Shown here piece by piece: positions 2,048 through 64,000 of a DNA stretch of 64,000 bases. Within the stretch, counting starts at the first letter, position 1. Each line of letters opens with the position of its first letter. The DNA comes from an uncultured Acidobacteriota bacterium (GTDB lineage Bacteria > Acidobacteriota > Vicinamibacteria > Vicinamibacterales > CAVVIG01): positions 69,661-133,660 of the forward strand of contig CAWBMO010000007.1 in the NCBI GenBank assembly GCA_963789965.1, in the 5' to 3' direction. Below the pieces are notes generated by a model that saw nothing but the letters and a program-made list of their open reading frames with translations, was not told where the DNA came from and ran no database searches. The position numbers and the translations under genes were made by a program.

Positions 2048-4587
2048 TGAGGACACTTGTGACGAGACGGTTGAGAGCAGTCGGGATTCTCCTGGCCTTC
2101 GGCATTCTTGCCAGCGGGTGCGCGGCCGGCAGCGCGTTCCGGCAGGGCGAGAAGGCATCGCAGGCCGGGAATCTCGACGAAGCCGTCGCGGCGTACCGCA
2201 GGGCGGTGCAGGCCGATCCGAGGAACCCGAACTACGCGATCGCGCTGCAGCGCACGATGGTCGCCGCGTCCCGGGCGCATCTCGAGCGCGCAAAGGAGTT
2301 CGAAGATCGCGATCAGCTGGAAGCGGCCCTCGGCGAGTACCGCCTGGCGTCGGAGTACGACCCGAGCAACCGGACCGTCATCGTGAAGGTAGCCAGCCTC
2401 GAGCAGACGATCCGCGCTCGTATCGAGGCGTCCCGGCCGCGGCCCGCCATTGAGGCACTCCGTGCGCAGGCGCGCGCGGCATCGGCCGAACCGGCGCTCA
2501 ATCCTGCGTCGCGCGACCCGTTGAGAGTCCAGTTCCCCAATGCCCAGGTCAGAGAGGTGCTCGGCTTCATCGCCAATCTGACGGGCATCAACATCACCTA
2601 CGACCGTGATGTGGTCGACGGCCGCGCGATTTCCGTCCAACTCGACGGGGTCACGCTCGAGCAGGCGCTCAATCAGATCATGACGATTGGGCAGCTGTCG
2701 TACAAAGTCGTGAATCCGCAATCCATCTTCGTGTTTCCGGACACGACCCCCAAGCACCAGATCTACGACGAGCAGGTCATCCGCACGTTCTATATCTCGA
2801 ACGCCGATCCCACCGAGCTTGCACAAACCGTGAGCCAGCTCATTCGAATTGCCGGCATCGCCGTTCAGCCGATGATTGCGCCCAACAAGATCGCCAACAC
2901 GATCACCGTGCGCTCCACCGGCCCCATGATGCAGATCGTCGAGAAGATCATCGAGCAGAACGACAAGCCGCGCGCCGAGATCATCGTCGACGTCGAGATC
3001 CTCGAGGTCGATCGCACCCGGACGAAAAGCTACGGCCTGAATCTGAGCGAGTACGCCGTCGGGACGATCTTTTCGCCCGTAGTGGCACCAGGCGGGGTCA
3101 CGGTCTCGACGCAGCAGGGCACAGTGACCGGCCCCGGAACGGGAACGGGAACGACAACGACCGCATCCGCGGGACAAGGGACAGCGCCGAGCGCCGTCAC
3201 CTCGCCGCCGCCGTTCAATCTGAACACGATCACGCGAGGCGTGAGCACCGCCGATTTCTATCTCGCCGTGCCGACCGCGATCGTGCGGTTTCTCGAGGCC
3301 GACAACCACACCAAAGTCATCGCGAAGCCGCAGCTGCGGGGCGCAGAGGGCTCCAAGCTGACGCTGAAGCTCGGTCAGAAGATTCCCGTGGTCTCGACCA
3401 GTTATACGCCGATTGCCACCGGCGGTGCGGGCGTCAACCCGCTGAGCTCGTACACATATCAGGACGTCGGCGTCAACATCGACATGACGCCGCGCGTCTC
3501 GCTCGACGGCGAGATTATCCTCGACTTGGTCCTGGACAACAGCGCGCTCGGCCCGGACAAATCTGTTGCGGGCGTGACGGTACCCACATTCGTGCAGCGC
3601 ACGGTCACGACACGGCTGCGCCTGCGCGATGGCGAGTCCAACCTGCTCGCAGGCCTGATACAGCAGCGAGACTCGAATACCGTCCAGGGATTCCCGGGCG
3701 CGATTCATCTGCCGTTTTTCAAGCAGATCTTCTCGGGCAACGACATCACGAGCGATCAGACCGAGATCATCATGCTGCTGACGCCCCACATCGTCCGCAC
3801 GCAGGAACTGACCGAATCAGACCTGCGGCCGATCTACATCGGCTCGCAGCAGAACCTGGGCCTCGGTGGACCGCCGCCGCTCATCGCCGCGCCGGAACCG
3901 GAACCGACGCCACCGCCGGCACCTGCGCCCACGCCTGGAGCGGCAGCACCCGGGGGGGCTGCGCCGGGTACTCTCACGGGGCCCGGCGGCGTCCAGCTGT
4001 CGGCTCCGCCTGGCTCGACTCCGGTCCCAGGCACCGTTGTGGTCGTCCCGGCGCCAGCCGTCCCGGCGCCGGGTGCGCCCGCCACCAATCCTGCGGCGCC
4101 GTCTCCAGCGCCGCAGGCAACGCCACCTCCAGGGCCGCCCGCGCCGGCAGCCGGAACCTCGACCACATCGCCCGGCCTCGGCCAGGCGCAGATCATCATC
4201 TCTCCGTCTCCCACGATGCGTGTCGGCGGCGGCCCGTACACTGTTCCAATATCAGTGACGAACGCGCTGGGCCTGTCGACGGTCTCGTTGACGCTGGTGT
4301 ACGACCCCACGAAGCTCCGCATCCGGTCCGTGCAGCAGGGCAGCTTCATGCGAACCGGGGGCATCGACGTCGTCTTCACCCAGCAGGTCAACGCGGGACG
4401 GGTCGACATCACGCTCACGCGGTCGGGGGACTCGACAGGCGCATCGGGCACCGGGCTTCTCGCCGCCGTGCTCTTTGACGCGATTGCGCCGGGCACGACC
4501 GCGCTCACGACGAGCGGCGCGGCAACCGGCCCTGGAGGCGCTGCCATGGGGCTGCAGTTCCAGCCGGTCACGGTCATCGTGCAGTAA
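2038..4587 (+). CDS. pilQ: Secretin (PilQ/GspD family) with TPR-like N-terminus and C-terminal Pro/Ala linker plus cohesin-like domain
   Basis: ORF 1987..4587. The first 17 codons translate the heptamer repeat, so ATG 2038 is preferred. Signal/lipobox-like LASGC, TPR-like helices, secretin N-domains and core (RAEIIVDVEILEV, TEIIMLLTPHIV). Then a ~100-aa P/A-rich linker and a beta domain (ISPSPT..VPISV..LTLVYDPTKL). Confidence 0.85.
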   Translation: MADLRTLVTRRLRAVGILLAFGILASGCAAGSAFRQGEKASQAGNLDEAVAAYRRAVQADPRNPNYAIALQRTMVAASRAHLERAKEFEDRDQLEAALGEYRLASEYDPSNRTVIVKVASLEQTIRARIEASRPRPAIEALRAQARAASAEPALNPASRDPLRVQFPNAQVREVLGFIANLTGINITYDRDVVDGRAISVQLDGVTLEQALNQIMTIGQLSYKVVNPQSIFVFPDTTPKHQIYDEQVIRTFYISNADPTELAQTVSQLIRIAGIAVQPMIAPNKIANTITVRSTGPMMQIVEKIIEQNDKPRAEIIVDVEILEVDRTRTKSYGLNLSEYAVGTIFSPVVAPGGVTVSTQQGTVTGPGTGTGTTTTASAGQGTAPSAVTSPPPFNLNTITRGVSTADFYLAVPTAIVRFLEADNHTKVIAKPQLRGAEGSKLTLKLGQKIPVVSTSYTPIATGGAGVNPLSSYTYQDVGVNIDMTPRVSLDGEIILDLVLDNSALGPDKSVAGVTVPTFVQRTVTTRLRLRDGESNLLAGLIQQRDSNTVQGFPGAIHLPFFKQIFSGNDITSDQTEIIMLLTPHIVRTQELTESDLRPIYIGSQQNLGLGGPPPLIAAPEPEPTPPPAPAPTPGAAAPGGAAPGTLTGPGGVQLSAPPGSTPVPGTVVVVPAPAVPAPGAPATNPAAPSPAPQATPPPGPPAPAAGTSTTSPGLGQAQIIISPSPTMRVGGGPYTVPISVTNALGLSTVSLTLVYDPTKLRIRSVQQGSFMRTGGIDVVFTQQVNAGRVDITLTRSGDSTGASGTGLLAAVLFDAIAPGTTALTTSGAATGPGGAAMGLQFQPVTVIVQ

Positions 4588-4597
4588 CGGTGCCTCG

Positions 4598-5209
4598 ATG
4601 GTCCCTGGTCCCTGGTCCTTCGTGCTTGGTCCGTCCCTGGTCCTTAGTCGTCCCTGGGCCTTGGCGCCTGGTGCACACCACGGACCGAGGACCAAGGACG
4701 GACTAAGGACTAAGAACGGACCAAGGACCAAGGCCCAAGGACTAAGGACCGACGACGGATACACGTTCATAGAGCTGCTCGTCGTCGCCACGATCATTCT
4801 GATTCTGGCATCGGCCATCATGCCGCTCGTGCGCGTCACGTCGACCCGCCAGCGCGAGGCCGAGCTGCGGCGCGATCTGCGGGAAATCCGCACGGCCATC
4901 GACAAGTTCAAGGACGCCGCCGACACCATGCAGATCAGCCCGCTCGACCTGAAGCCGGACGGCATGGGCTATCCGCCCGATCTCGAGACGCTTGTCGAAG
5001 GGGTGACCGCGGCGAACGATCAGGCCGCGCGCAAGCTCAAGTTTCTGCGGCGTGTCCCGGTGGATCCCATGACGCACGACACCGAGTGGGGGATGCGTTC
5101 GTACCAGGACGATCCGGACGCCACACGGTGGGGCGGACAGAATGTGTTCGACGTCTACACGAAGTTCGAAGGAACGGCGCTGGACGGGACCAAATACAAA
5201 GACTGGTGA
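4598..5209 (+). CDS. GspG-like pseudopilin / type IV pilin-like protein
   Basis: Prepilin motif G|YTFIELLVV with Glu at +5. GspG-like body (RRVPVDPMT..W). Start is uncertain: the in-frame candidates are ATG 4598 or TTG 4664, both inside hairpin repeat A1. Confidence 0.75.
   Translation: MVPGPWSFVLGPSLVLSRPWALAPGAHHGPRTKDGLRTKNGPRTKAQGLRTDDGYTFIELLVVATIILILASAIMPLVRVTSTRQREAELRRDLREIRTAIDKFKDAADTMQISPLDLKPDGMGYPPDLETLVEGVTAANDQAARKLKFLRRVPVDPMTHDTEWGMRSYQDDPDATRWGGQNVFDVYTKFEGTALDGTKYKDW
4600..4750. repeat. Tandem-heptamer palindrome, family A (GGTCCYT)n ... (ARGGACC)n
   Basis: ~75-nt left arm of GGTCCCT/GGTCCTT units, apex near 4675, right arm of AAGGACC/TAAGGAC units. Lies between pilQ and the first pseudopilin. 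Confidence 0.9.
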
Positions 5210-5388
5210 ATTGGGTAATTGGGTAATCTGGTAATTGGGTAATTGATTGGTGAATTGAATGCGGTGGATTGGCTGATGGTGGATAGGCAGACTGGATTGA
5301 AACGGCGACTGCGCACGACTCGTGCCCTTCGTGTCTTCAATCGTCTCTTCAATTATCCGATTACCCGATTACCCGATTACCCAATTGA
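5208..5388. repeat. Tandem-octamer palindrome, family B (GGGTAATT)n ... (CGATTACC)n with ~88-nt loop
   Basis: Left arm 5208-5262, right arm 5351-5387. The candidate start codons of the second pseudopilin lie in the loop. Confidence 0.85.
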
Positions 5389-5776
5389 CCGTTCCCCGTC
5401 CGGATTCACGATCATCGAGCTCCTCGTTGTCCTCGCCCTCATCTCCATCCTGGCTACCATGGGGATGGCGCAGTACCGGCAGGGCGTCGTGCACGCGCGC
5501 GAGGCGGTGTTGAAGACGGATTTGTTCGATCTGCGGGACGCGATCGATCAGTACTACGCCGACAAAGGGCAGTATCCCGGGACGCTCGACTCGCTCGTCA
5601 CTGACGGATATATCCGGAAGGTCCCCGTCGACCCCTTCACGAACGCCGCCGACACGTGGCAGACGGTTCCGTCAGACCCCGATCCCAATAATCCCACCGC
5701 CACTCCTGGAATCTACGACGTGAAGAGCGGGTCCGATGGGACCGCCATCGACGGCAGCAAATACGCGGAGTGGTAA
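5276..5776 (+). CDS. GspG-like pseudopilin (T2SS major pseudopilin family)
   Basis: G|FTIIELLVVLALISILA with Glu+5. DLRDAIDQYYADKGQYPGTLDSLV..YIRKVPVDPF is a classic GspG pattern. Start is uncertain (ATG 5276, GTG 5279 or TTG 5297, all in the loop of repeat B1). Confidence 0.8.
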   Translation: MVDRQTGLKRRLRTTRALRVFNRLFNYPITRLPDYPIDRSPSGFTIIELLVVLALISILATMGMAQYRQGVVHAREAVLKTDLFDLRDAIDQYYADKGQYPGTLDSLVTDGYIRKVPVDPFTNAADTWQTVPSDPDPNNPTATPGIYDVKSGSDGTAIDGSKYAEW

Positions 5777-8017: not shown

Positions 8018-8030
8018 GGGTTAAGACGTT

Positions 8031-8126
8031 GAATCTGGTCATCTGGTTATCTGGTCATCTAGTCAATGATTTGGGTCACTCCTGAAATCAATGACCAGAT
8101 AACCAGATGACTAGATGACCAAATTC
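8031..8126. repeat. Tandem-octamer palindrome, family D (CTGGTCAT)n ... (ATGACCAG)n
   Basis: GAATCTGGTCATCTGGTTATCTGGTCATCTAGTCAATGATTT pairs with AAATCAATGACCAGATAACCAGATGACTAGATGACCAAATTC. Lies between convergent genes. The stop of the minus-strand gene is in the right foot. Confidence 0.9.
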
Positions 8127-9204
8127 ATAGTGCACCCAGCGCATCGTGGAAGGCGCGCCGGACCGCCCGCATGTCCTCCGGCGATCCGCCGCCGCAGGCC
8201 CGATTCGTCAGGAGCACGAAATACCGATCCCGGCCCGGGTCGACCCACAAGGACGTTCCCGTAAACCCCACGTGGCCGACGGCTTTCGGCGACATCTGCG
8301 TCCCACACGAGGAGGTTGGCAACATCGTGTCCCACCCGAGCGCGCGTGAGCTCCCGGGGACGGAGCTCTTCGTCATGAAGCTGGCGACGAGTTCGGGAGA
8401 GAACGGCGCGGGGCCGCTGTCGTCGCGTGCGGCACGCAGGAGGAGACGTGCGAAGGCGCCGACGGCGGGTACCGTTCCGAACAATCCCGCATGACCGGCG
8501 CTGCCGCCGAGTGCGGCCGCGTAGTTGTCGTGAACTTCGCCGGCGAGCAATCGGCCCCGGCGCGGATCGTCTTCGAGCGGCTGCGTCGGGGCGGCGCCGG
8601 CTCTCAAGTTCCCCCTTAGATCAAACGTCAGGGGATCCGCCGTCAGGCCGATTTGTGCCGCGATTCGATCAAACAACTCCGGCAGCGACGCTCCCCCGCG
8701 ATCGACCGCAAGAAATCCCAACAGAATGAAACCGAGATCGCTGTAGATCGACCGCGTCCGCGGCTCGTATTCAAGCGCCGTTCGGCAGATGTCGTGCTCG
8801 AACTCACGGCGGCTCCGTGGCGGGGCGTCGACGAGCCGCGCCGGGAGCCCCGAGGTGTGTTCCAGCAGGTCGCGAATCGTCACGCGCGCGCGATCGGCGC
8901 CGCGCCATTCGTTGAAGAATTCAGAGACGGAATCGTCGAGCCTCACTCGCATCGTGCGCACGAGCTCCATCAGAATGCTCGTCGTGACGATGGCTTTCGT
9001 GAGGGAAGCGAGGTCGAAGGGCGTGTCGAGCCGAGCCGGCAAAGAGCCGGCGTCGAAAGTCAGCGTGCCAAGTGCGTCACTCCAGAGCACACCTGCGGAC
9101 GAGCCGACCTCGAAACTCGCTGCAGGAAAGATCCGCCCGGCAATCGCTTGCTCGAGGACAAGCCGCGCGGCAACCGTCACGCCAGATGCGCGAGGGGCGT
9201 TCAC
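8125..9204 (-). CDS. Serine hydrolase (beta-lactamase / PBP4-like family)
   Basis: 359 aa. Active-site SxxK motif (ASLTK) near the N-terminus, class C beta-lactamase-like layout. 4-nt overlap with murQ. Confidence 0.8.
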   Translation of the reverse strand: MNAPRASGVTVAARLVLEQAIAGRIFPAASFEVGSSAGVLWSDALGTLTFDAGSLPARLDTPFDLASLTKAIVTTSILMELVRTMRVRLDDSVSEFFNEWRGADRARVTIRDLLEHTSGLPARLVDAPPRSRREFEHDICRTALEYEPRTRSIYSDLGFILLGFLAVDRGGASLPELFDRIAAQIGLTADPLTFDLRGNLRAGAAPTQPLEDDPRRGRLLAGEVHDNYAAALGGSAGHAGLFGTVPAVGAFARLLLRAARDDSGPAPFSPELVASFMTKSSVPGSSRALGWDTMLPTSSCGTQMSPKAVGHVGFTGTSLWVDPGRDRYFVLLTNRACGGGSPEDMRAVRRAFHDALGAL

Positions 9205-10196: not shown

Positions 10197-10283
10197 TTGG
10201 TCGTTGGTCATTAGTCGTTGGTCGTTGGTTGGTCACCAGCCCTTGACGAACGTGTAACGACTAATGACTAATGACCAACGACC
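10197..10283. repeat. Tandem-heptamer palindrome, family E (TTGGTCGT/TTGGTCAT)n ... (ACGACYAA)n
   Basis: Lies in the murQ/xerD divergent spacer. The right arm ends one nt before the xerD GTG. Confidence 0.85.
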
Positions 10284-21762: not shown

Positions 21763-21882
21763 GAATCGGGTAATCGAGCCATCGCGTAATTGGGTAATTG
21801 CCCCGATGTCGGAAACTGCCCAGCTACCCTGGGACCCGACTACCCAATTGCCCGATGACCCGATGACCCGATGACTCGATTC
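21763..21882. repeat. Tandem-octamer palindrome, family B (imperfect)
   Basis: GAATCGGGTAATCGAGCC..GTAATTGGGTAATTG pairs with CAATTGCCCGATGACCCGATGACCCGATGACTCGATTC. Lies between the nuclease gene and parA. Confidence 0.7.
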
Positions 21883-39355: not shown

Positions 39356-39363
39356 TTAATAAG

Positions 39364-39470
39364 AAAGCACTACCACAAAGGACACGGAAAGAAACGGAGG
39401 GCACGGAAAACAATTAATAGGTTGTTGCCGTGACCTCGGTTTGTCGCCGTGACCTCCGTGGTAGAGCTTT
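39364..39470. repeat. F-type palindrome (AAAGCACTACCAC-AAAGGACACGG.. / ..CCGTGACCTCC-GTGGTAGAGCTTT)
   Basis: ~49-nt arms, loop TTAATAGG. Arm differences are mostly A/G transitions. Lies between the LptC/A-like gene and lptB. Confidence 0.85.
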
Positions 39471-39519
39471 CGTCGTTCGTGGTAGCGCTTTTTGTCGGAC
39501 GCTGCGGCGCTTTCGATAT

Positions 39520-41714: not shown

Positions 41715-41793
41715 GTGAAATTGCAGATTGCAGAATTCAGATTGTAGATTCATTGCAGATTCAATCTGAATTCTGCAATCTGAAATCTGCAAT
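41715..41793. repeat. Tandem-heptamer palindrome, family C (ATTGCAG)n ... (CTGCAAT)n
   Basis: 25-bp stem ATTGCAGATTGCAGAATTCAGATTG / CAATCTGAATTCTGCAATCTG..CAAT, 17-nt loop. The right arm encodes the RecJ C-terminus and stop. Confidence 0.9.
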
Positions 41794-43488
41794 AGTCAGC
41801 TCTGTGTATGTCTCCCCGTTGTATTGATTCTGCTCCAACGAAAAGGCCACGTCGAGCGCGGCCCGGTGCTCCGTCAGGTACTCGTGCCGCTCGGCCGCGC
41901 GCCAGGCCACCGCCCTGAAGACGCGTCCGTCCTGCTTCAACGCCATCTTGAGATGCCGCTCCTTCAGCAGGCGCGGACCATCGACAATCTCCACGTGCCG
42001 CGCCGCAAAAACCGGACGCGGGTTTCCGGCGCCAAACGGCGCCAGCGAGGCAACGCCTGATGCCACGCCGGCGGTAATGCCGCGAAACGTCAGGTCGCCG
42101 TCGATGCGCAACCGCGGCATCAAATCGTCTGGACCCAGCGTCTCATCCGCCACCGCGTTGACCGCCAGGCGGAACTCCCGGACGCGGCCCGCCTCGAGGG
42201 TGAGACCCGCCGCCTGCCGGTGACCGCCGAACCGCCCGAGCAGGTGCGCGCATCGCTCGAGCGCGCCCAGCATGTCAAAGCCCGAAATGCTCCGGCACGA
42301 CCCCTGGGCGACGCCGTCTTCAACCGACAGCACAATGGCCGGCCGGTGAAACGCGTCCACGAGCTTCGAGGCCACAATGCCAATGACGCCGCGGTGCCAG
42401 CCCTCGCCGGCCACGACAAGGATGGAGCGGGCGCCGATGTCCGGATCGGTCTGGACGAGCTTTTTCGCCGCGGCGACGATCCCCGCTTCTTCCTCCTGCC
42501 GCCGGACGTTTTCTCCGTCGAGCTGCACCGCCAGGGCCCTCACCTCCTCTGCCATCGCCTCGTCGGTGGCGAGGAGGAGGCGGGTGGCGAGGTCCGGCGT
42601 GCTCATCCGTCCAGCCGCATTGATGCGCGGAGCCACCATGAACGAGATGTTGAAGCTGTCCATGGTCTTGCCCGTCAGACCGGCCACATCCAGCAGGGCG
42701 CGCAGCCCGACTTTGTGCGGGCCGCGCGAGAGCAATTCGAGGCCGATCTTCGCGATGACACGATTCTCGCCGACGAGCGGCACGACGTCGGCCAGCGTGC
42801 CGATCGCGGCGATCTTCACGAAACCGGGCAGCCAGCTTTCGCGGCCGGCCTGCGTGCAGAGCGCCTGCACCAGTTTCAACGCCACGCCGACGCCCGCCAG
42901 GAACTTGTCCGGATACTGGCAGTCGTGCCGCTTGGGGTTGATCACGGCAAACGCCGGCGGCAGCGTGGTGTCCGGCTCGTGGTGATCCGTGATGATCAGG
43001 TCCACACCGAGCTCGCGCGCGCGACGGGCGGCCTCGGCGCCGCGAATGCCGCAGTCGACTGACACGATGAGCGAGACGCCGTCGGCGTGCAGACGTTCGA
43101 TCGCGACAGGCTGGAGGCCGTAGCCGTCGCGCAGGCGCTCCGGGATGAAGTGGATCACGTCAGCGCCGAGCAGCTCGAGGGCGCGGCGCAAGATGACCGT
43201 CGACGTGACGCCATCCACATCGTAGTCGCCGTGGATGGCGATCCGTTCCCTGTTTGCGATAGCGCCCATGATCCGGTCGACAGCCACGCGCATGTCGGCG
43301 AGCCGCATGGGATCGTGCAGGTGTTCGAGCGTCGGGTTCAGAAAGCGAAACGCCAGATCCGGATCGCCCAGTCCGCGCTGGCAAAGAAGCCGCGCCACCG
43401 GGGCCTCGATGCCGAGCGCCGACGCCAGCCGCGCGGCGGCTTCCTCGTCGCAATCTTGCGATAGCCAGATCGGTCCGACGACGGGCAT
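41761..43488 (-). CDS. recJ: Single-stranded-DNA-specific exonuclease RecJ
   Basis: 575 aa. DHH motifs (IAIHGDYDVDGVTS, DLIITDHH) and a DHHA1 domain. The last ~10 codons lie in repeat C2. Confidence 0.9.
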   Translation of the reverse strand: MPVVGPIWLSQDCDEEAAARLASALGIEAPVARLLCQRGLGDPDLAFRFLNPTLEHLHDPMRLADMRVAVDRIMGAIANRERIAIHGDYDVDGVTSTVILRRALELLGADVIHFIPERLRDGYGLQPVAIERLHADGVSLIVSVDCGIRGAEAARRARELGVDLIITDHHEPDTTLPPAFAVINPKRHDCQYPDKFLAGVGVALKLVQALCTQAGRESWLPGFVKIAAIGTLADVVPLVGENRVIAKIGLELLSRGPHKVGLRALLDVAGLTGKTMDSFNISFMVAPRINAAGRMSTPDLATRLLLATDEAMAEEVRALAVQLDGENVRRQEEEAGIVAAAKKLVQTDPDIGARSILVVAGEGWHRGVIGIVASKLVDAFHRPAIVLSVEDGVAQGSCRSISGFDMLGALERCAHLLGRFGGHRQAAGLTLEAGRVREFRLAVNAVADETLGPDDLMPRLRIDGDLTFRGITAGVASGVASLAPFGAGNPRPVFAARHVEIVDGPRLLKERHLKMALKQDGRVFRAVAWRAAERHEYLTEHRAALDVAFSLEQNQYNGETYTELTIADFRLQNSD

Positions 43489-43515
43489 TAGAATCGGCCC
43501 ATCCTTTGCGTGTCA

Positions 43516-44030
43516 AAAGCGCTACTCACCGTAGTCCTCAACACAAAGGACACGAAGGAGCACACGGAGTACGATCTCGACCCAACGGCAGAGTCACGAC
43601 CGTGATCTAGTGCCGCGCTCGAGGTTCATTCGCAAATTGGGGCCGGAATGCTCGAGAGCGCGGTGTGGGCATGCATGTCTCACGAACTCGCCACCAACGG
43701 CCTCCACTTCGAGATCGACCAGGTTTATCTAGTCACGCTCGATGAGCAGTTCCGATTGCCGGTTCGGTTACCGCGTCGATCTTCTTGTCGAAGGAGTGGC
43801 CGGTCGTCGAGATCAAAGCGCGTGGAGAACATCCTTCCCGTTCATGAGGCGCAGGTACTCTCGTATCTCAAGTTGAGTGGGATTCGGGTCGGCTTGCTCA
43901 TTAACTTCAACGTCGCTCACCTGCGTCAGGGAATCAGACGCCGAATCTGTACGGTCCTGAGACAGAGTGATCCGTGTTCTCCGTTTGCATGAATTGTCCT
44001 TGCGTTGAAACCCACCGTGGCAGTGCTTCT
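43516..44030. repeat. F-type palindrome whose ~390-bp loop carries the GxxExxY gene
   Basis: The left arm is 43516-43576 (AAAGCGCTAC..CAACACAAAGGACACGAAGGAGCACACGGAG). The right arm is 43967-44030 (GTGATCCGTGTTCTCCGTTTGC..GTCCTTGCGTTG..GGCAGTGCTTCT). The arms are reverse-complementary in register. Confidence 0.7.
43590..43992 (+). pseudogene. GxxExxY-family (PD-(D/E)XK-like) protein gene, disrupted by several +1 frameshifts, nested in the loop of an F-type hairpin
   Basis: AALEVHSQIGAGMLESA.., then out-of-frame FGYRVDLLVEGVAG and VVEIKA, then VENILPVHEAQVLSYLKLSGIRVGLLINFNV. Shifts are near 43608, 43762, 43802 and 43821. The last three sum to +3, so ORF 43648..43992 stays open. Confidence 0.6.
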
Positions 44031-44046
44031 GTCTGTCAGGCGGTGA

Positions 44047-45018
44047 TCAGCTACCTTCGTCGACGAAATCGATACCGAGCCGCCCCATGTTTCGAAATTT
44101 GTCGTAGCGCAGCTTCAGCCTCGTGTCCCGATCGAGCGCGCTCACCTCCGTCAGCGCCTGCTCGAGAACGCGATCGATGAGCCTGGCGGCGGCCGCCGGA
44201 TCGGTATGAGCGCCGCCGATCGGTTCGGGCACGATTTCGTCGATGATGTCAGCCTTCAGCAGATCGGGCGCCGTGATCTTGAGCGCCGCCGCCGCTTCCA
44301 CCTTCTTCGCGGGATCACGCCACAGAATGGCCGCGCAGCCTTCGGGCGGGATCACGCTGTAGATCGCGTACTCCTGCATGAGCACACGATCGCCGACCGC
44401 AATGCCGAGCGCACCGCCGCTGCCGCCCTCGCCGCTGACGATGACGATGATCGGCGTGTCCAGGAGCATCATGTCGCGCAGGTTCACGGCAATGGCTTCG
44501 GCGACGCCCCGCTCCTCGGATTCGATCCCGGGATAAGCGGCCGGCGTATCGACAAACACGAGGATCGGCCGACCGAACTTTTCCGCGAGCCGCATCGCTC
44601 GAAGCGCCTTGCGGTACCCTTCGGGCCGCGCATACCCGAAATTCCTGAAGATCTTGTCCTTCGTGTCGCCGCCCTTGACGTGCCCGACGAGCAGCACCGG
44701 CTGGCCCTTGTAGTCAGCGAACCCGGTCATGATCGCGTGATCGTCGGCGAACCGACGGTCTCCGTGAATCTCGACAAAGTTGGTGAACAGGCGCTCGATG
44801 ACGTCTTCGAGGCCGGGACGGTTGGGATGCCGCGCGACCAGCACGCGCTGCCACGGGGTGAGCGATCGATACAGGTCGCCGCGTGTGGTCTCGAGCCGGC
44901 GCTTCAGCGTATCGATCTGTCGCTCGCGGGCATCGGTGCGCGGGAGCACCGTGAGCGCCTCGATCTCTTTCAAGAGAACGGCGATCGGCTCTTCGAAGTC
45001 CAGGGTCTCTAACGCCAT
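44047..45018 (-). CDS. accA: Acetyl-CoA carboxylase carboxyltransferase subunit alpha
   Basis: 323 aa. LDFEEPI..L, ARHPNRP and GEGGSGGALG motifs. The start overlaps the dnaE stop (TAATG). Confidence 0.9.
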   Translation of the reverse strand: MALETLDFEEPIAVLLKEIEALTVLPRTDARERQIDTLKRRLETTRGDLYRSLTPWQRVLVARHPNRPGLEDVIERLFTNFVEIHGDRRFADDHAIMTGFADYKGQPVLLVGHVKGGDTKDKIFRNFGYARPEGYRKALRAMRLAEKFGRPILVFVDTPAAYPGIESEERGVAEAIAVNLRDMMLLDTPIIVIVSGEGGSGGALGIAVGDRVLMQEYAIYSVIPPEGCAAILWRDPAKKVEAAAALKITAPDLLKADIIDEIVPEPIGGAHTDPAAAARLIDRVLEQALTEVSALDRDTRLKLRYDKFRNMGRLGIDFVDEGS

Positions 45019-48615: not shown

Positions 48616-48791
48616 AGTCCTTGGTCCTTTGGTCTTGGTCCTTCGTCCGTCCTTGGTCTTTGGTCCTTCGTCCGTCCTTGATCATTCGTCCGTCCCTGGT
48701 CATTCGTGCTCGGTCCGTGCCAAGCGCCAAGGCCCAAGGACAACCAAGGACTAAGGACGGACCAAGAACCAAGGACCAAGAACCAAGGACC
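48616..48791. repeat. Tandem-heptamer palindrome, family A (largest copy)
   Basis: ~100-nt left arm with internal GGTCCTTCGTCCGTCCTTG duplications, ~70-nt right arm (CCAAGGAC/TAAGGAC units). Fills the guaA-dnaE spacer. Confidence 0.9.
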
Positions 48792-57467: not shown

Positions 57468-57543
57468 GAATCGGGTAATTGGATAATCGGGTAATTGAGT
57501 AATTGCGATTACCCAATTACCCAATTACCCGATTACCCAATGC
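57468..57543. repeat. Tandem-octamer palindrome, family B
   Basis: The left arm GAATCGGGTAATTGGATAATCGGGTAATTGAGTAAT is identical to 31354-31389. The right arm contains the psd stop. Lies inside the psd-pssA operon. Confidence 0.9.
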
Positions 57544-58198: not shown

Positions 58199-58274
58199 AA
58201 GAGGTTCGAGAGGTTTCGAGAGATTCGAAAGGTTCGAGAGGTTCTAGAACCCTTAGAACCTCTCGAACCTCTCG
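58199..58274. repeat. Tandem-nonamer palindrome, family G (GAGAGGTTC)n ... (GAACCTCTC)n
   Basis: Centred on GGTTCTAGAACC (58241-58252). Lies between the DUF465 gene and psd. Confidence 0.85.
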
Positions 58275-59061: not shown

Positions 59062-59150
59062 TCAACACAAAGGACACCAAGGACACAAAGGTAAAACACC
59101 TTTGAGTATTTCCTTAGTCTCTTTTGTGTCCATGGTGTCCATTGTGTTGA
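59062..59150. repeat. F-type palindrome (TCAACACAAAGGACACCAAGGACACAAAGG / rc)
   Basis: ~30-bp stem. Lies between tsaB and rimI. The tsaB stop is in the loop/right arm. Confidence 0.85.
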
Positions 59151-62604: not shown

Positions 62605-64000
62605 GGCGCCGCGTGTTTTTCACCACAAAGGACACTAAGGACACAAAGGCCAGAACCGGTTCGTTCCTCTGTGTCCTTTGTGTCCTTTGTGTTCCTGCCT
62701 GCCTTGAACGGCCCACTCTTAATCCGAACGTCCTCGTCGTCGCGATGCCGAGCGGACCCAATAGTCTCGACCCTCGGGTCGGACTCGACGATGCGTCGCA
62801 GAAGATCCATCAGTTGATCTTCGACAATCTGTTCGAGCTCGACGACAAGATGCGTGTGAGGCCGAAGCTCGCCGAAACACTCGACCACCCGACGCCCACG
62901 ACCTACGTCGTCACACTCAAGCACGGGGTTCGTTTTCAAGACGGGCACGAGCTGACATCGGCTGATGTCGTCTATACGTTCCGGAGCTTCTTGGATCCCG
63001 ATTTCGTGTCCGGACGTAAGGGCGGGTACCGCGAGCTTCATTCCGTTGACACGATCGACCGGTACACCGTGGTCTTTACTCTCGACAGACCCTTCACGTC
63101 TTTCCCGATTAATCTCGTCATGCCCATCGTGCCCGACGGCGCTGGTGCCACGCTCTCGAGACGTCCCATGGGCACGGGACCGTACCGGTTCGTTCGCTAT
63201 GCGGTCGACGATCGCATCGAACTTGAGCCTTTCAACGAGTACTTCGGCGGCCGCCCGCGCAATGACGGGCTGATCATAAAGGTCGTGCCCGACGACATCA
63301 TGCGCGGGCTCGAGTTGCGGAAGGGGACGACGGACCTGGTCATCAACGACCTGACGCCGGACATCGTCTTCCAGCTCGAAAAGAGCGACCGGCTGCAGCT
63401 GGTCGAAGCGCCGGGTGTCGATTACCAGTATCTCGGACTGAACCTGCAAGACCCTGTACTAAAGGATGTCAGAGTCCGCCAGGCCCTCGCGTACGCAATC
63501 GACACGCACGCGATCATCGAATATCTGCGACGCGGGCTCGCGACGCCGGCGACAGGGCTTATGCCCCGTCAGTCCTGGGCGATTGCTCCCGATGTACGCG
63601 CGTACCCGTTCGATCCGGATCGTGCAAGAGCGCTTCTCGACGAGGCAGGCTACCGCGATCCGGATGGCGACGGTCCAGCGCCCCGCCTGCTCCTGAGCTT
63701 GAAAATCTCCAGCGCTCAGGAATTCAACCGGCTGCAGGCGTCAGTCATACAGCAACACCTGCGTGCCGTCGGCATCGATCTCGACGTGCGCACCTACGAG
63801 TTCGCGACGCTGTTTTCGGACGTACTGAAGGGGAACTTTCAGATATACAGCCTGCAGTGGACGGCCGGCTCGCTCGCCGATCCCGATATGCTCCGCCGCG
63901 TCTTTCATTCGAAACAGGTGCCGCCCGAAGGGTTCAACCGCGGTCACTTCAGCGATCCACGAGTGGATGCCCTGCTCGACGAAGCCGCCTCCTCGACCGA
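62601..64000 (+). CDS. ABC transporter substrate-binding protein, family 5 (peptide/nickel type), 3' end outside window
   Basis: The frame is open from ATG 62601 (overlaps the mutS stop, ATGA) to the window edge, so it is absent from the ORF track. LDPRVGLDDASQ..IFDNLFELD, VTLKHGVRFQDGHELTSADVVYTF, GTGPYRF. Codons 8-34 are repeat F4. Confidence 0.75.
   Translation, partial: MRRRVFFTTKDTKDTKARTGSFLCVLCVLCVPACLERPTLNPNVLVVAMPSGPNSLDPRVGLDDASQKIHQLIFDNLFELDDKMRVRPKLAETLDHPTPTTYVVTLKHGVRFQDGHELTSADVVYTFRSFLDPDFVSGRKGGYRELHSVDTIDRYTVVFTLDRPFTSFPINLVMPIVPDGAGATLSRRPMGTGPYRFVRYAVDDRIELEPFNEYFGGRPRNDGLIIKVVPDDIMRGLELRKGTTDLVINDLTPDIVFQLEKSDRLQLVEAPGVDYQYLGLNLQDPVLKDVRVRQALAYAIDTHAIIEYLRRGLATPATGLMPRQSWAIAPDVRAYPFDPDRARALLDEAGYRDPDGDGPAPRLLLSLKISSAQEFNRLQASVIQQHLRAVGIDLDVRTYEFATLFSDVLKGNFQIYSLQWTAGSLADPDMLRRVFHSKQVPPEGFNRGHFSDPRVDALLDEAASST
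62621..62695. repeat. F-type palindrome inside the 5' end of the substrate-binding protein gene
   Basis: CACCACAAAGGACACTAAGGACACAAAGG - 17-nt loop - CTCTGTGTCCTTTGTGTCCTTTGTGTTCC. Confidence 0.85.

Follow-up and report, generated by a model that had tools for sequence, protein, structure and literature searches.

What is a frameshifted nuclease gene doing inside a long hairpin in the spacer between recJ and accA? The question arises from a 64,000-nt stretch of DNA from an uncultured Acidobacteriota bacterium of the order Vicinamibacterales (contig CAWBMO010000007.1; the whole stretch is hereafter called the window), in which a pseudogene of the GxxExxY (PF13366) family occupies the loop of a hairpin formed by two inverted repeats, or arms. 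On balance, we take the locus to be a copy, now in decay, of a small palindromic cassette of a selfish kind that resembles both the intervening sequences (IVSs) of rRNA genes and the system of repetitive extragenic palindromic (REP) hairpins (REPINs) and REP-associated tyrosine transposases (RAYTs). Behind this reading stand several observations: inverted-repeat packaging is the rule for the GxxExxY gene family; the accA-recJ spacer cycles between an empty state, a solo hairpin, an intact gene, a pseudogene and an internally deleted form, with sister species holding different nuclease lineages and arm types; and the same arms also occur cargo-free as solo hairpins. The comparison covers about 160 related loci, all of them from metagenome-assembled genomes (MAGs) or metagenome contigs.

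A preliminary description of the window had placed reverse-complementary arms at 43516-43576 and 43967-44030, which was essentially right and better than chance. By aligning the upstream flank locally, with gaps allowed, to the reverse-complemented downstream flank, with z calculated against shuffles, we refined the left arm, a terminal inverted repeat, to 43514-43572 and the right arm, its reverse complement with mismatches and indels, to 43976-44031 (both on the plus strand); alignment of arms and the closing stem in predicted folds located the same pair. The alignment scored 16, with z=4.7. Among 300 random 360-nt intervals from related loci, used as an empirical control, four reached z≥4.7 and six a score of at least 16; taken alone, the complementarity in the window is real but weak (p about 0.01-0.02). 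The two arms are roughly 65-70% complementary, indels included. An exact-seed repeat search at the locus missed them and a harsher local-alignment scoring gave a non-significant z of only about 1.9; such degenerate arms call for gentler gapped scoring combined with an empirical control. The terminal stem closes the element in minimum-free-energy and centroid folds on both strands, so that terminal inverted repeats form a long stem with an open reading frame (ORF) in the loop, as in an IVS; the fold z of the whole element on the plus strand is only -0.66.

Purine-rich and pyrimidine-rich low-complexity sequence might by coincidence be complementary around an ordinary pseudogene, and the incomplete complementarity of the arms, the failed seed search, the z of about 1.9 and the unremarkable plus-strand fold would all suit such an explanation. 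It is nonetheless scarcely credible: the gapped score is attained by just 1-2% of controls, the syntenic copy L001 and dozens of copies at the orthologous site have clear arms at the same positions with z up to 16-20, and 69% of unrelated family members have arms. The comparative data thus refute chance complementarity, and the inverted repeat at the window locus is confirmed.

The arms also occur without a gene. Their proposed kinship with gene-less hairpins elsewhere in the window is borne out by arm alignment, in which a core, TCAACACAAAGGACAC / ACGGAG..CACGG, is common to the arms of the element and to hairpins at 39363-39492, 59062-59150 and 62624-62691 (none of the three assigned to a strand). 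The first is of a long-arm subtype (AAAGCACTACCACAAAGGACACGG..ACGGAGGGCACGG; DNA fold z=-6.6); the second has TCAACACAAAGGACACCAAGGACACAAA arms that are 93% complementary around a 33-nt loop (fold z=-7.6), and the third CACAAAGGACACTAAGGACACAAAGG arms that are 92% complementary around a 16-nt loop (fold z=-6.8). Together, the eight arms in the window and those of L001 and L002 align on [TC][AC]ACCAC[AG][AG]AGGACAC..A.G..CAC.GAGG. The outer left arm of the element, AAAGCGCTAC.., is common to L001, L002 and the hairpin at 39363, and the inner left arm, TCAACACAAAGGACACGAAGGA, to those at 59062 and 62624; CACAAAGGACAC is present in the window 15 times where 2.85 would be expected, an approximately five-fold excess. 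The window holds three solo hairpins to one gene, and about 640 kb of flanks contained no further GxxExxY match. A gene flanked by inverted copies of a repeat that is also dispersed gene-less is the arrangement of REPIN-RAYT systems.

The loop had been described as carrying a GxxExxY ORF in need of about four frame corrections. Using tblastn with homologues and three-frame translation, we found exactly four frame changes, in the order 2, 3, 1, 2, 3, and a stop at about 43606. The pseudogene (43506-43992, plus strand throughout), recognised by profile matches, tblastn and three-frame translation as a GxxExxY/PF13366 PD-(D/E)XK nuclease, begins in frame 2 with a TTG start, an arm-encoded leader, RPNGRVTTVI and the stop (43506-43610), continues in frame 3 from 43609 to about 43750, passes to frame 1 at 43763-43795 (FGYRVDLLVE), returns to frame 2 at 43782-43820 (VVEIKA) and ends in frame 3 at 43815-43992. 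Its C-terminal ORF (43648-43992) matches TIGR04256 (E=1.6e-13, 51 bits against a 35-bit cut-off); the reconstructed protein matches PF13366 over profile positions 5-116 of 117 (E=2.5e-28), and the stitched window protein has 7,841 relatives, the best 63% identical. The intact frame of the family is lost and its motif reads GMLESAV, with the tyrosine replaced; codons for the catalytic E, the D of YRVD and the ExK of VEIKA remain, in different frames. Relative to the sister locus L002, the closest relative (AccA 90% identical), the frameshifts are 1-nt insertions; L002 is itself an independently decayed copy with its own stop and a 3' truncation.

The preliminary description noted that a frame open from TTG 43506 would make the translated left arm the N-terminus of the protein. 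Such a frame exists, and its leader, LRVKSAT.., is 50% identical over 22 residues to that of P0005, in keeping with the aligning arm-encoded leaders of close homologues. ORFs that begin at a TTG or ATG upstream and read through the arm are, however, confined to the subfamily of the window copy (leaders such as RVKSATTEDTDTNGGHG), of which the arm-encoded N-terminus is a peculiarity; 12 of the 16 intact copies at the site have an in-frame ATG 5-31 nt inside the loop, after the arm, and the Pfam domain begins past the leader.

Is this packaging particular to one locus? The link between gene and hairpin extends to other GxxExxY copies: in a sample of 80 loci from diverse metagenomes, 75 of them testable, flanking inverted repeats with z≥5 surround 52 of the 75 unrelated genes (69%) against 3 of 300 control intervals (1%). 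The common plan consists of 25-60-bp terminal inverted repeats, of consensus TTCACC-ACAGAGGA-CAC.GAG.., around a loop of about 400-450 nt that is almost wholly a GxxExxY (PF13366) gene of about 120 codons. The arms start T(T/A)(C/A)ACC(R)C(R)GAG and are built from two to four tandem units with a modal spacing of 9 nt and the consensus TTCACCACAGAGGACAC.GAG; in unrelated samples at the level of phyla they lie within about 5-40 nt of the ORF on either side and share this terminal consensus. In 25 of 34 metagenomic loci the left arm lies 0-20 nt past the stop codon of a co-directional upstream gene, the upstream gene being co-directional in 47 cases and opposed in 10. We found no description of palindromic packaging in the literature on GxxExxY, PDDEXK_3 and the family accessions. 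The arms are stop-free in several frames, and gene callers fuse neighbours across them or add arm-encoded tails (L101:27-2252; P0189, P0232, P0014); examples are a chain of RNase H, linker and GxxExxY, and a 741-aa ORF spanning the hairpin between two oxidoreductase genes.

To follow the element at a fixed position, we turned to the orthologous accA-recJ site. An AccA scan covered 80 Vicinamibacterales species, in 75 of which both neighbours could be placed. In L001, a Vicinamibacterales MAG, recJ, GxxExxY and accA are syntenic with the window; there the nuclease gene is intact (148 aa) and the arms are clear. Across the 75 spacers, 22 are empty (-10 to +25 bp, many with stop and start codons overlapping in ATGA), 17 measure 34-330 bp and have no gene match, and 36 hold a gene or its remnants; about 29 full-length copies, at least three solo hairpins and at least seven internally deleted remnants occur at the site. 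In intact orthologous copies the arms span 25-41 bp and the loops 393-453 nt.

The preliminary description had advised a search for empty hairpins at orthologous sites, and clean gene-less hairpins are indeed present there in L018, L076 and L020. Elsewhere, arms surround partial genes (L079, L023, L024, L035, L053, L014 and L038); L079 is an L077-type element minus a single internal stretch of about 257 bp, its arms intact. Loop deletion, one of two possibilities raised in the preliminary description, is thereby demonstrated as a route to gene-less hairpins. The solo hairpin of L020 (L020:4994-5254) measures 261 bp and includes a second, nested hairpin; its 30-bp arms, built from GCGGATKAC units, are perfect. 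This gene-free spacer has a minimum free energy of -202 kcal/mol and is wholly unlike the elements of its closest relatives, L011 and L015.

Occupancy states are interleaved on a neighbour-joining tree of AccA and RecJ, even between sister taxa; as with homing endonuclease genes, a fixed site is polymorphic for the presence of the gene, which degenerates there and re-invades. Some pairs co-diverge (host identity 88-92%, GxxExxY 81-84%). Others do not: L033 and L037 are 93% identical in host proteins against 47% in GxxExxY, L005 and L007 90% against 57%, and L024 and L046 85% against 33%, and the rank correlation between host and GxxExxY identity is only 0.29. When 80 metagenomic copies, all from loci away from accA and recJ, were included in a tree, the copies from the accA-recJ site formed at least five clades, with copies from elsewhere interspersed among them. 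Nuclease clade and arm type go together, the arms being of the CACGGAGGA, CACAAAGGA or CGCNGAGGA type or of the long AAAGCGCTACCACGG.. type.

Two element lineages are combined in the window copy, which is a mosaic. Its DNA identity to L002 is 86% at 43489-43528, falls to 61% at 43529-43762 and rises to 94% at 43763-43882. In step with this, the protein shares, in its N-terminal half, 38-43% identity with the long-arm clade and 59-62% with the clade-B proteins P0006, P0022 and P0041, whereas in its C-terminal half identity to the long-arm clade is 85-95%. The low-identity segment (43529-43762, plus strand), comprising the inner portion of the left arm together with the N-terminal half of the gene, is thus a conversion tract of about 234 bp from the clade-B (CACAAAGGA-arm) GxxExxY lineage and was copied in after the split from L002. 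A mosaic of this kind implies that the elements exchange sequence. The window copy represents a late stage: recombined, subsequently frameshifted and decaying.

Might the arms instead be needed in RNA? The locus had been likened to rRNA IVSs, and one could suppose that the arms serve a stem in the transcript, either cut by RNase III to free the ORF loop while leaving the mRNA ends structured, or masking the ribosome-binding site, with presence and absence arising from deletions and ordinary spacer recombination and no part played by the nuclease. Size and layout do match the ORF-carrying 23S rRNA IVS, which measures 428-444 nt and has a 28-bp stem (PMC4990558). The usual position of the element, close behind a co-directional upstream gene, suggests co-transcription without a promoter of its own, and the window copy has no promoter-like site; in many copies the distance between GGAGG/AAGGA, at the inner end of the arm, and the ATG is that of a Shine-Dalgarno sequence, and the uniform orientation of the gene at the accA-recJ site, described below, would fit selection or allelic exchange. 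The IVS comparison nevertheless holds for anatomy only. The element sits in a protein-gene spacer and its arm mismatches have no strand preference, G-U-compatible changes numbering 102 on the sense strand against 116 on the other; the gene is antisense to both neighbours at the accA-recJ site, and no Rfam family matches. In the vertically inherited copies L006, L055 and L011, moreover, the arms have drifted to low complementarity instead of being maintained, and RNA folding alone leaves unexplained why different loci of one genome have arm types in common. Symmetric mismatches together with drifted vertical arms suggest that the complementarity is established when an element arises or through DNA-level conversion, and is not kept by selection on one RNA. 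We consider such an RNA-based element unlikely.

The arms and their dispersal can also be considered from the side of the hairpins. Vicinamibacterales genomes contain many intergenic hairpins whose arms are tandem 7-, 8- or 9-nt units, and the GxxExxY gene is carried only by the 9-nt class (8-nt in one clade). One contig, L101, has periodic hairpins between every adjacent gene pair. Genomes of the clade L074-L081 have another hairpin, without a gene, upstream of accA, and in five of seven of these genomes its arm type is that of the accA-recJ element of the same genome, the types differing between genomes. The 20-nt core of an element's own arm recurs in its flanks at 7 of 63 loci, against 2.2% for arms taken from other loci, and the arms of the three solo hairpins in the window match those of the window element. 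Arm types thus tend to be common within a genome and different between genomes.

Such hairpins could be REP-like structures maintained by the host as terminators, mRNA stabilisers or protein-binding sites, made and homogenised by the host, with GxxExxY a mere passenger that inserts preferentially into, or is tolerated by, one hairpin class. The window and its relatives do hold many families of 7-, 8- and 9-nt-unit hairpins at conserved intergenic positions, mostly cargo-free; L101 has them in every spacer, and solo hairpins far outnumber genes, as in the window and its flanks. Against this, arms and gene co-vary, nuclease clades going with arm types; arms that abut the ORF in unrelated samples and have a common terminal consensus indicate that they travel with the gene; and the deletion intermediates show gene loss from hairpins, while no intermediate shows gene entry. 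We regard this account as quite improbable.

Under the reading that we prefer, a selfish palindromic cassette, the nuclease would act at the DNA level on its own hairpin family, whether as cruciforms, single-stranded hairpins or unit arrays. The break would be repaired by copying from another family member, which could spread gene and arms into solo hairpins or new spacers and homogenise the arms within a genome; slippage between the arms would remove the loop and regenerate solo hairpins. The outcome would be a cycle of gain, decay and loss like that of homing endonucleases, with solo hairpins in the role of REPINs and the nuclease in that of the RAYT. Nuclease-triggered copying would account for the conversion tract, the within-genome homogenisation of arms, the co-variation of arms and protein, and the lack of target duplications. 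At the RNA level, a stem-loop insert may leave the host transcript compactly structured, a stem of at least 22 bp could be an RNase III site and, in some copies, the stem could mask the Shine-Dalgarno-like GGAGG, which, like AAGGA, is often found at the inner arm end at the appropriate distance from the ATG.

Several points weigh against the cassette reading. All 41 of 41 copies at the accA-recJ site have one orientation, antisense to accA and recJ, which is unexpected for many independent random insertions and fits exchange of spacers between species by homologous recombination, or selection on orientation. Adjacent direct repeats around 63 elements (0 nt in 45, 1 nt in 14, 2 nt in 3 and 4 nt in 1) are at chance level, so that there are no target-site duplications and hence no classical insertion footprint. 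About 30% of GxxExxY genes have no detectable arms. Many Vicinamibacterales hairpin families with 7-8-nt units never hold a gene, so hairpin turnover may not need GxxExxY; in loci that had been chosen for GxxExxY, no other cargo gene was found in hairpins of the same type. Finally, the trees are neighbour-joining trees of about 120 residues built from MAG data, the statistics of within-genome arm concordance come from small numbers at few loci, and the copying mechanism is one that we infer.

A wider proposal follows the same lines, and we put it forward tentatively, as possible rather than probable: GxxExxY (PF13366) nucleases may be the engine of unrecognised, phylum-spanning palindromic elements that spread by nuclease-triggered copying into their own solo hairpins, a PD-(D/E)XK counterpart of RAYT/REPIN, of which ORF-bearing rRNA IVSs and the four helix bundle family could be variants.

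What is known of the protein itself? In 58 homologues the E of GxxE, the D of YRxD and the ExK are invariant or nearly so. An AlphaFold model (pLDDT 96.3) has a PD-(D/E)XK-type topology, and a fold search returned generic PD-(D/E)XK matches only, the best being Cas4 SSO0001 (E about 9e-3, TM 0.55); a profile search found no relative in the PDB. PADLOC reported weak Cas4 similarity only and PHROGs nothing, and these results lend no support to a known defence system or a phage origin; viral contigs contain only 2 copies in 2.9 million. The family PF13366/TIGR04256 comprises 33,092 clusters at 50% identity (E≤1e-3), and we found essentially no literature on it. PF13366 is the only Pfam match of the window protein, which thus has no HUH/Y1 (IS200/IS605-like) transposase domain of the kind found in REPIN-RAYT systems. 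Proteins P0121-P0135 (240-295 aa) have two PF13366 domains per chain, and in the examples read the second domain is without ExK, a possible built-in pseudo-dimer.

Around the element, the window has a G+C content of 64.6%, and the recJ-accA spacer measures 558 bp. Both neighbours are intact and on the minus strand, with the GxxExxY element antisense to the two alike: recJ (41761-43488, 575 aa), whose start codon is 25 nt from the left arm and whose Pfam DHH, DHHA1 and RecJ_OB domains are seen in the syntenic L001, and accA (44047-45018, 323 aa), whose stop codon is 15 nt from the right arm. The element lies between these genes and not, as an IVS would, inside an rRNA gene in place of a helix tetraloop (helix 9, 25 or 45). 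An Rfam search of the whole window, rRNA included, gave no match, and a promoter and terminator consensus scan of 43300-44200 found nothing.

Some further features of the spacer and its surroundings deserve mention. The last accA codons (44047-44064 in the window; 3' ends in L002-L081), ..GTGGACGA(G/A)GG.., look like a unit of the arms (GGACGAAGGA / CACGGAGGA). The likeness, which concerns GTGGACGAGGG at the 3' end of accA, might help to make the site a hotspot and could equally be coincidence. On the recJ side, 15-25 nt outside the left arm, TTGCTT(C) (GAAGCAA in recJ sense) is conserved in L003-L067 with occupied and with hairpin-only spacers; its absence from metagenomic GxxExxY loci elsewhere marks it as site-specific, possibly a local promoter or recJ leader element. 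L077, L079, L080 and L081 have a conserved outer flank in common, GGTGAGACATAGAA, which comes after the right arm both upstream of accA (at about 3990-4000) and upstream of recJ, with the ATG of the gene some 5-10 nt further on; it may either belong to the element or serve as a shared leader. Beyond the three solo hairpins, the window has at least nine further cargo-free hairpins (4600-4750, 5205-5390, 8030-8127, 10199-10283, 21765-21872, 41720-41786, 48617-48790, 57473-57538 and 58226-58274) whose arms repeat a unit of 7, 8 or 9 nt in tandem, GGTCCCT, TGGGTAAT, CTGGTCAT and ATTGCAG being examples; relatives of the window have periodic hairpins at the same intergenic positions, with species-specific units. 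Five loci (L036, L053, L054, L069 and L058) are titled as Bifidobacterium or Bifidobacteriaceae or, in one case, Betaproteobacteria, and have accA-recJ sequences 77-79% identical to the window; they are probably mislabelled or contaminated bins.

Routine inverted-repeat packaging gives the very large PF13366/TIGR04256 family a concrete, testable role, and the link to solo hairpins offers an explanation for the conspicuous intergenic hairpins of Acidobacteriota and other soil and sediment bacteria. The long-standing puzzle of rRNA intervening sequences that carry ORFs is likewise widened to protein-coding operons and, in practical terms, stop-free arms emerge as a cause of gene-calling artefacts, among them arm-encoded N-terminal leaders such as TTEDTDTNGGHG and fused ORFs.

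How, then, does the element compare with known systems? Like transposons with terminal inverted repeats and the miniature inverted-repeat transposable elements derived from them, it has terminal inverted repeats and gene-less internal-deletion derivatives that outnumber the gene-carrying form; unlike them, it has neither target-site duplications nor a DDE or other known transposase, and the whole element is a near-perfect hairpin whose arms directly abut the ORF. Homing endonuclease genes, free-standing or intron-borne, include PD-(D/E)XK types such as I-Ssp6803I; in them a small nuclease is the sole cargo, a fixed site passes through gain, degeneration, loss and re-invasion, and co-conversion tracts are left. 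The sole small nuclease cargo, the cyclic site occupancy and the 234-bp tract in the window copy are similar, but here there is no intron or intein, and the presumed homing site would be not a single allele but the hairpin family of the element itself, at many loci.

The ORF-carrying 23S rRNA IVSs of Coxiella burnetii and Leptospira, with an S23p four-helix-bundle ORF, are alike in size (about 430-520 nt) and in having terminal inverted repeats and a stem of about 28 bp or more; in Coxiella a 428-444-nt element has a 28-bp stem with the ORF in its loop (PMC4990558). In both, one small ORF fills the loop and a sporadic distribution points to horizontal spread (PMC4990558). The present element differs in lying in a protein-gene spacer, in its PD-(D/E)XK rather than S23p cargo, in its arms of tandem units of about 9 nt and in a mismatch pattern without an RNA-strand signal. 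With REPIN-RAYT systems it has in common a gene flanked by inverted copies of a palindromic repeat that is scattered gene-less in intergenic regions, as well as genome-specific repeat types that match the gene-adjacent copies, with few genes and many repeats (PMC3116915, PMC3337134). The differences lie in the gene, a nuclease of about 120 residues of the PD-(D/E)XK type in place of an HUH/Y1 transposase; in the repeat, arrays of 9-nt units in place of REPs of 20-35 nt with a GTAG/CGTC tag; and in the mode of inheritance, GxxExxY being often lost, replaced or pseudogenised, whereas RAYTs are long-lived and vertically inherited.

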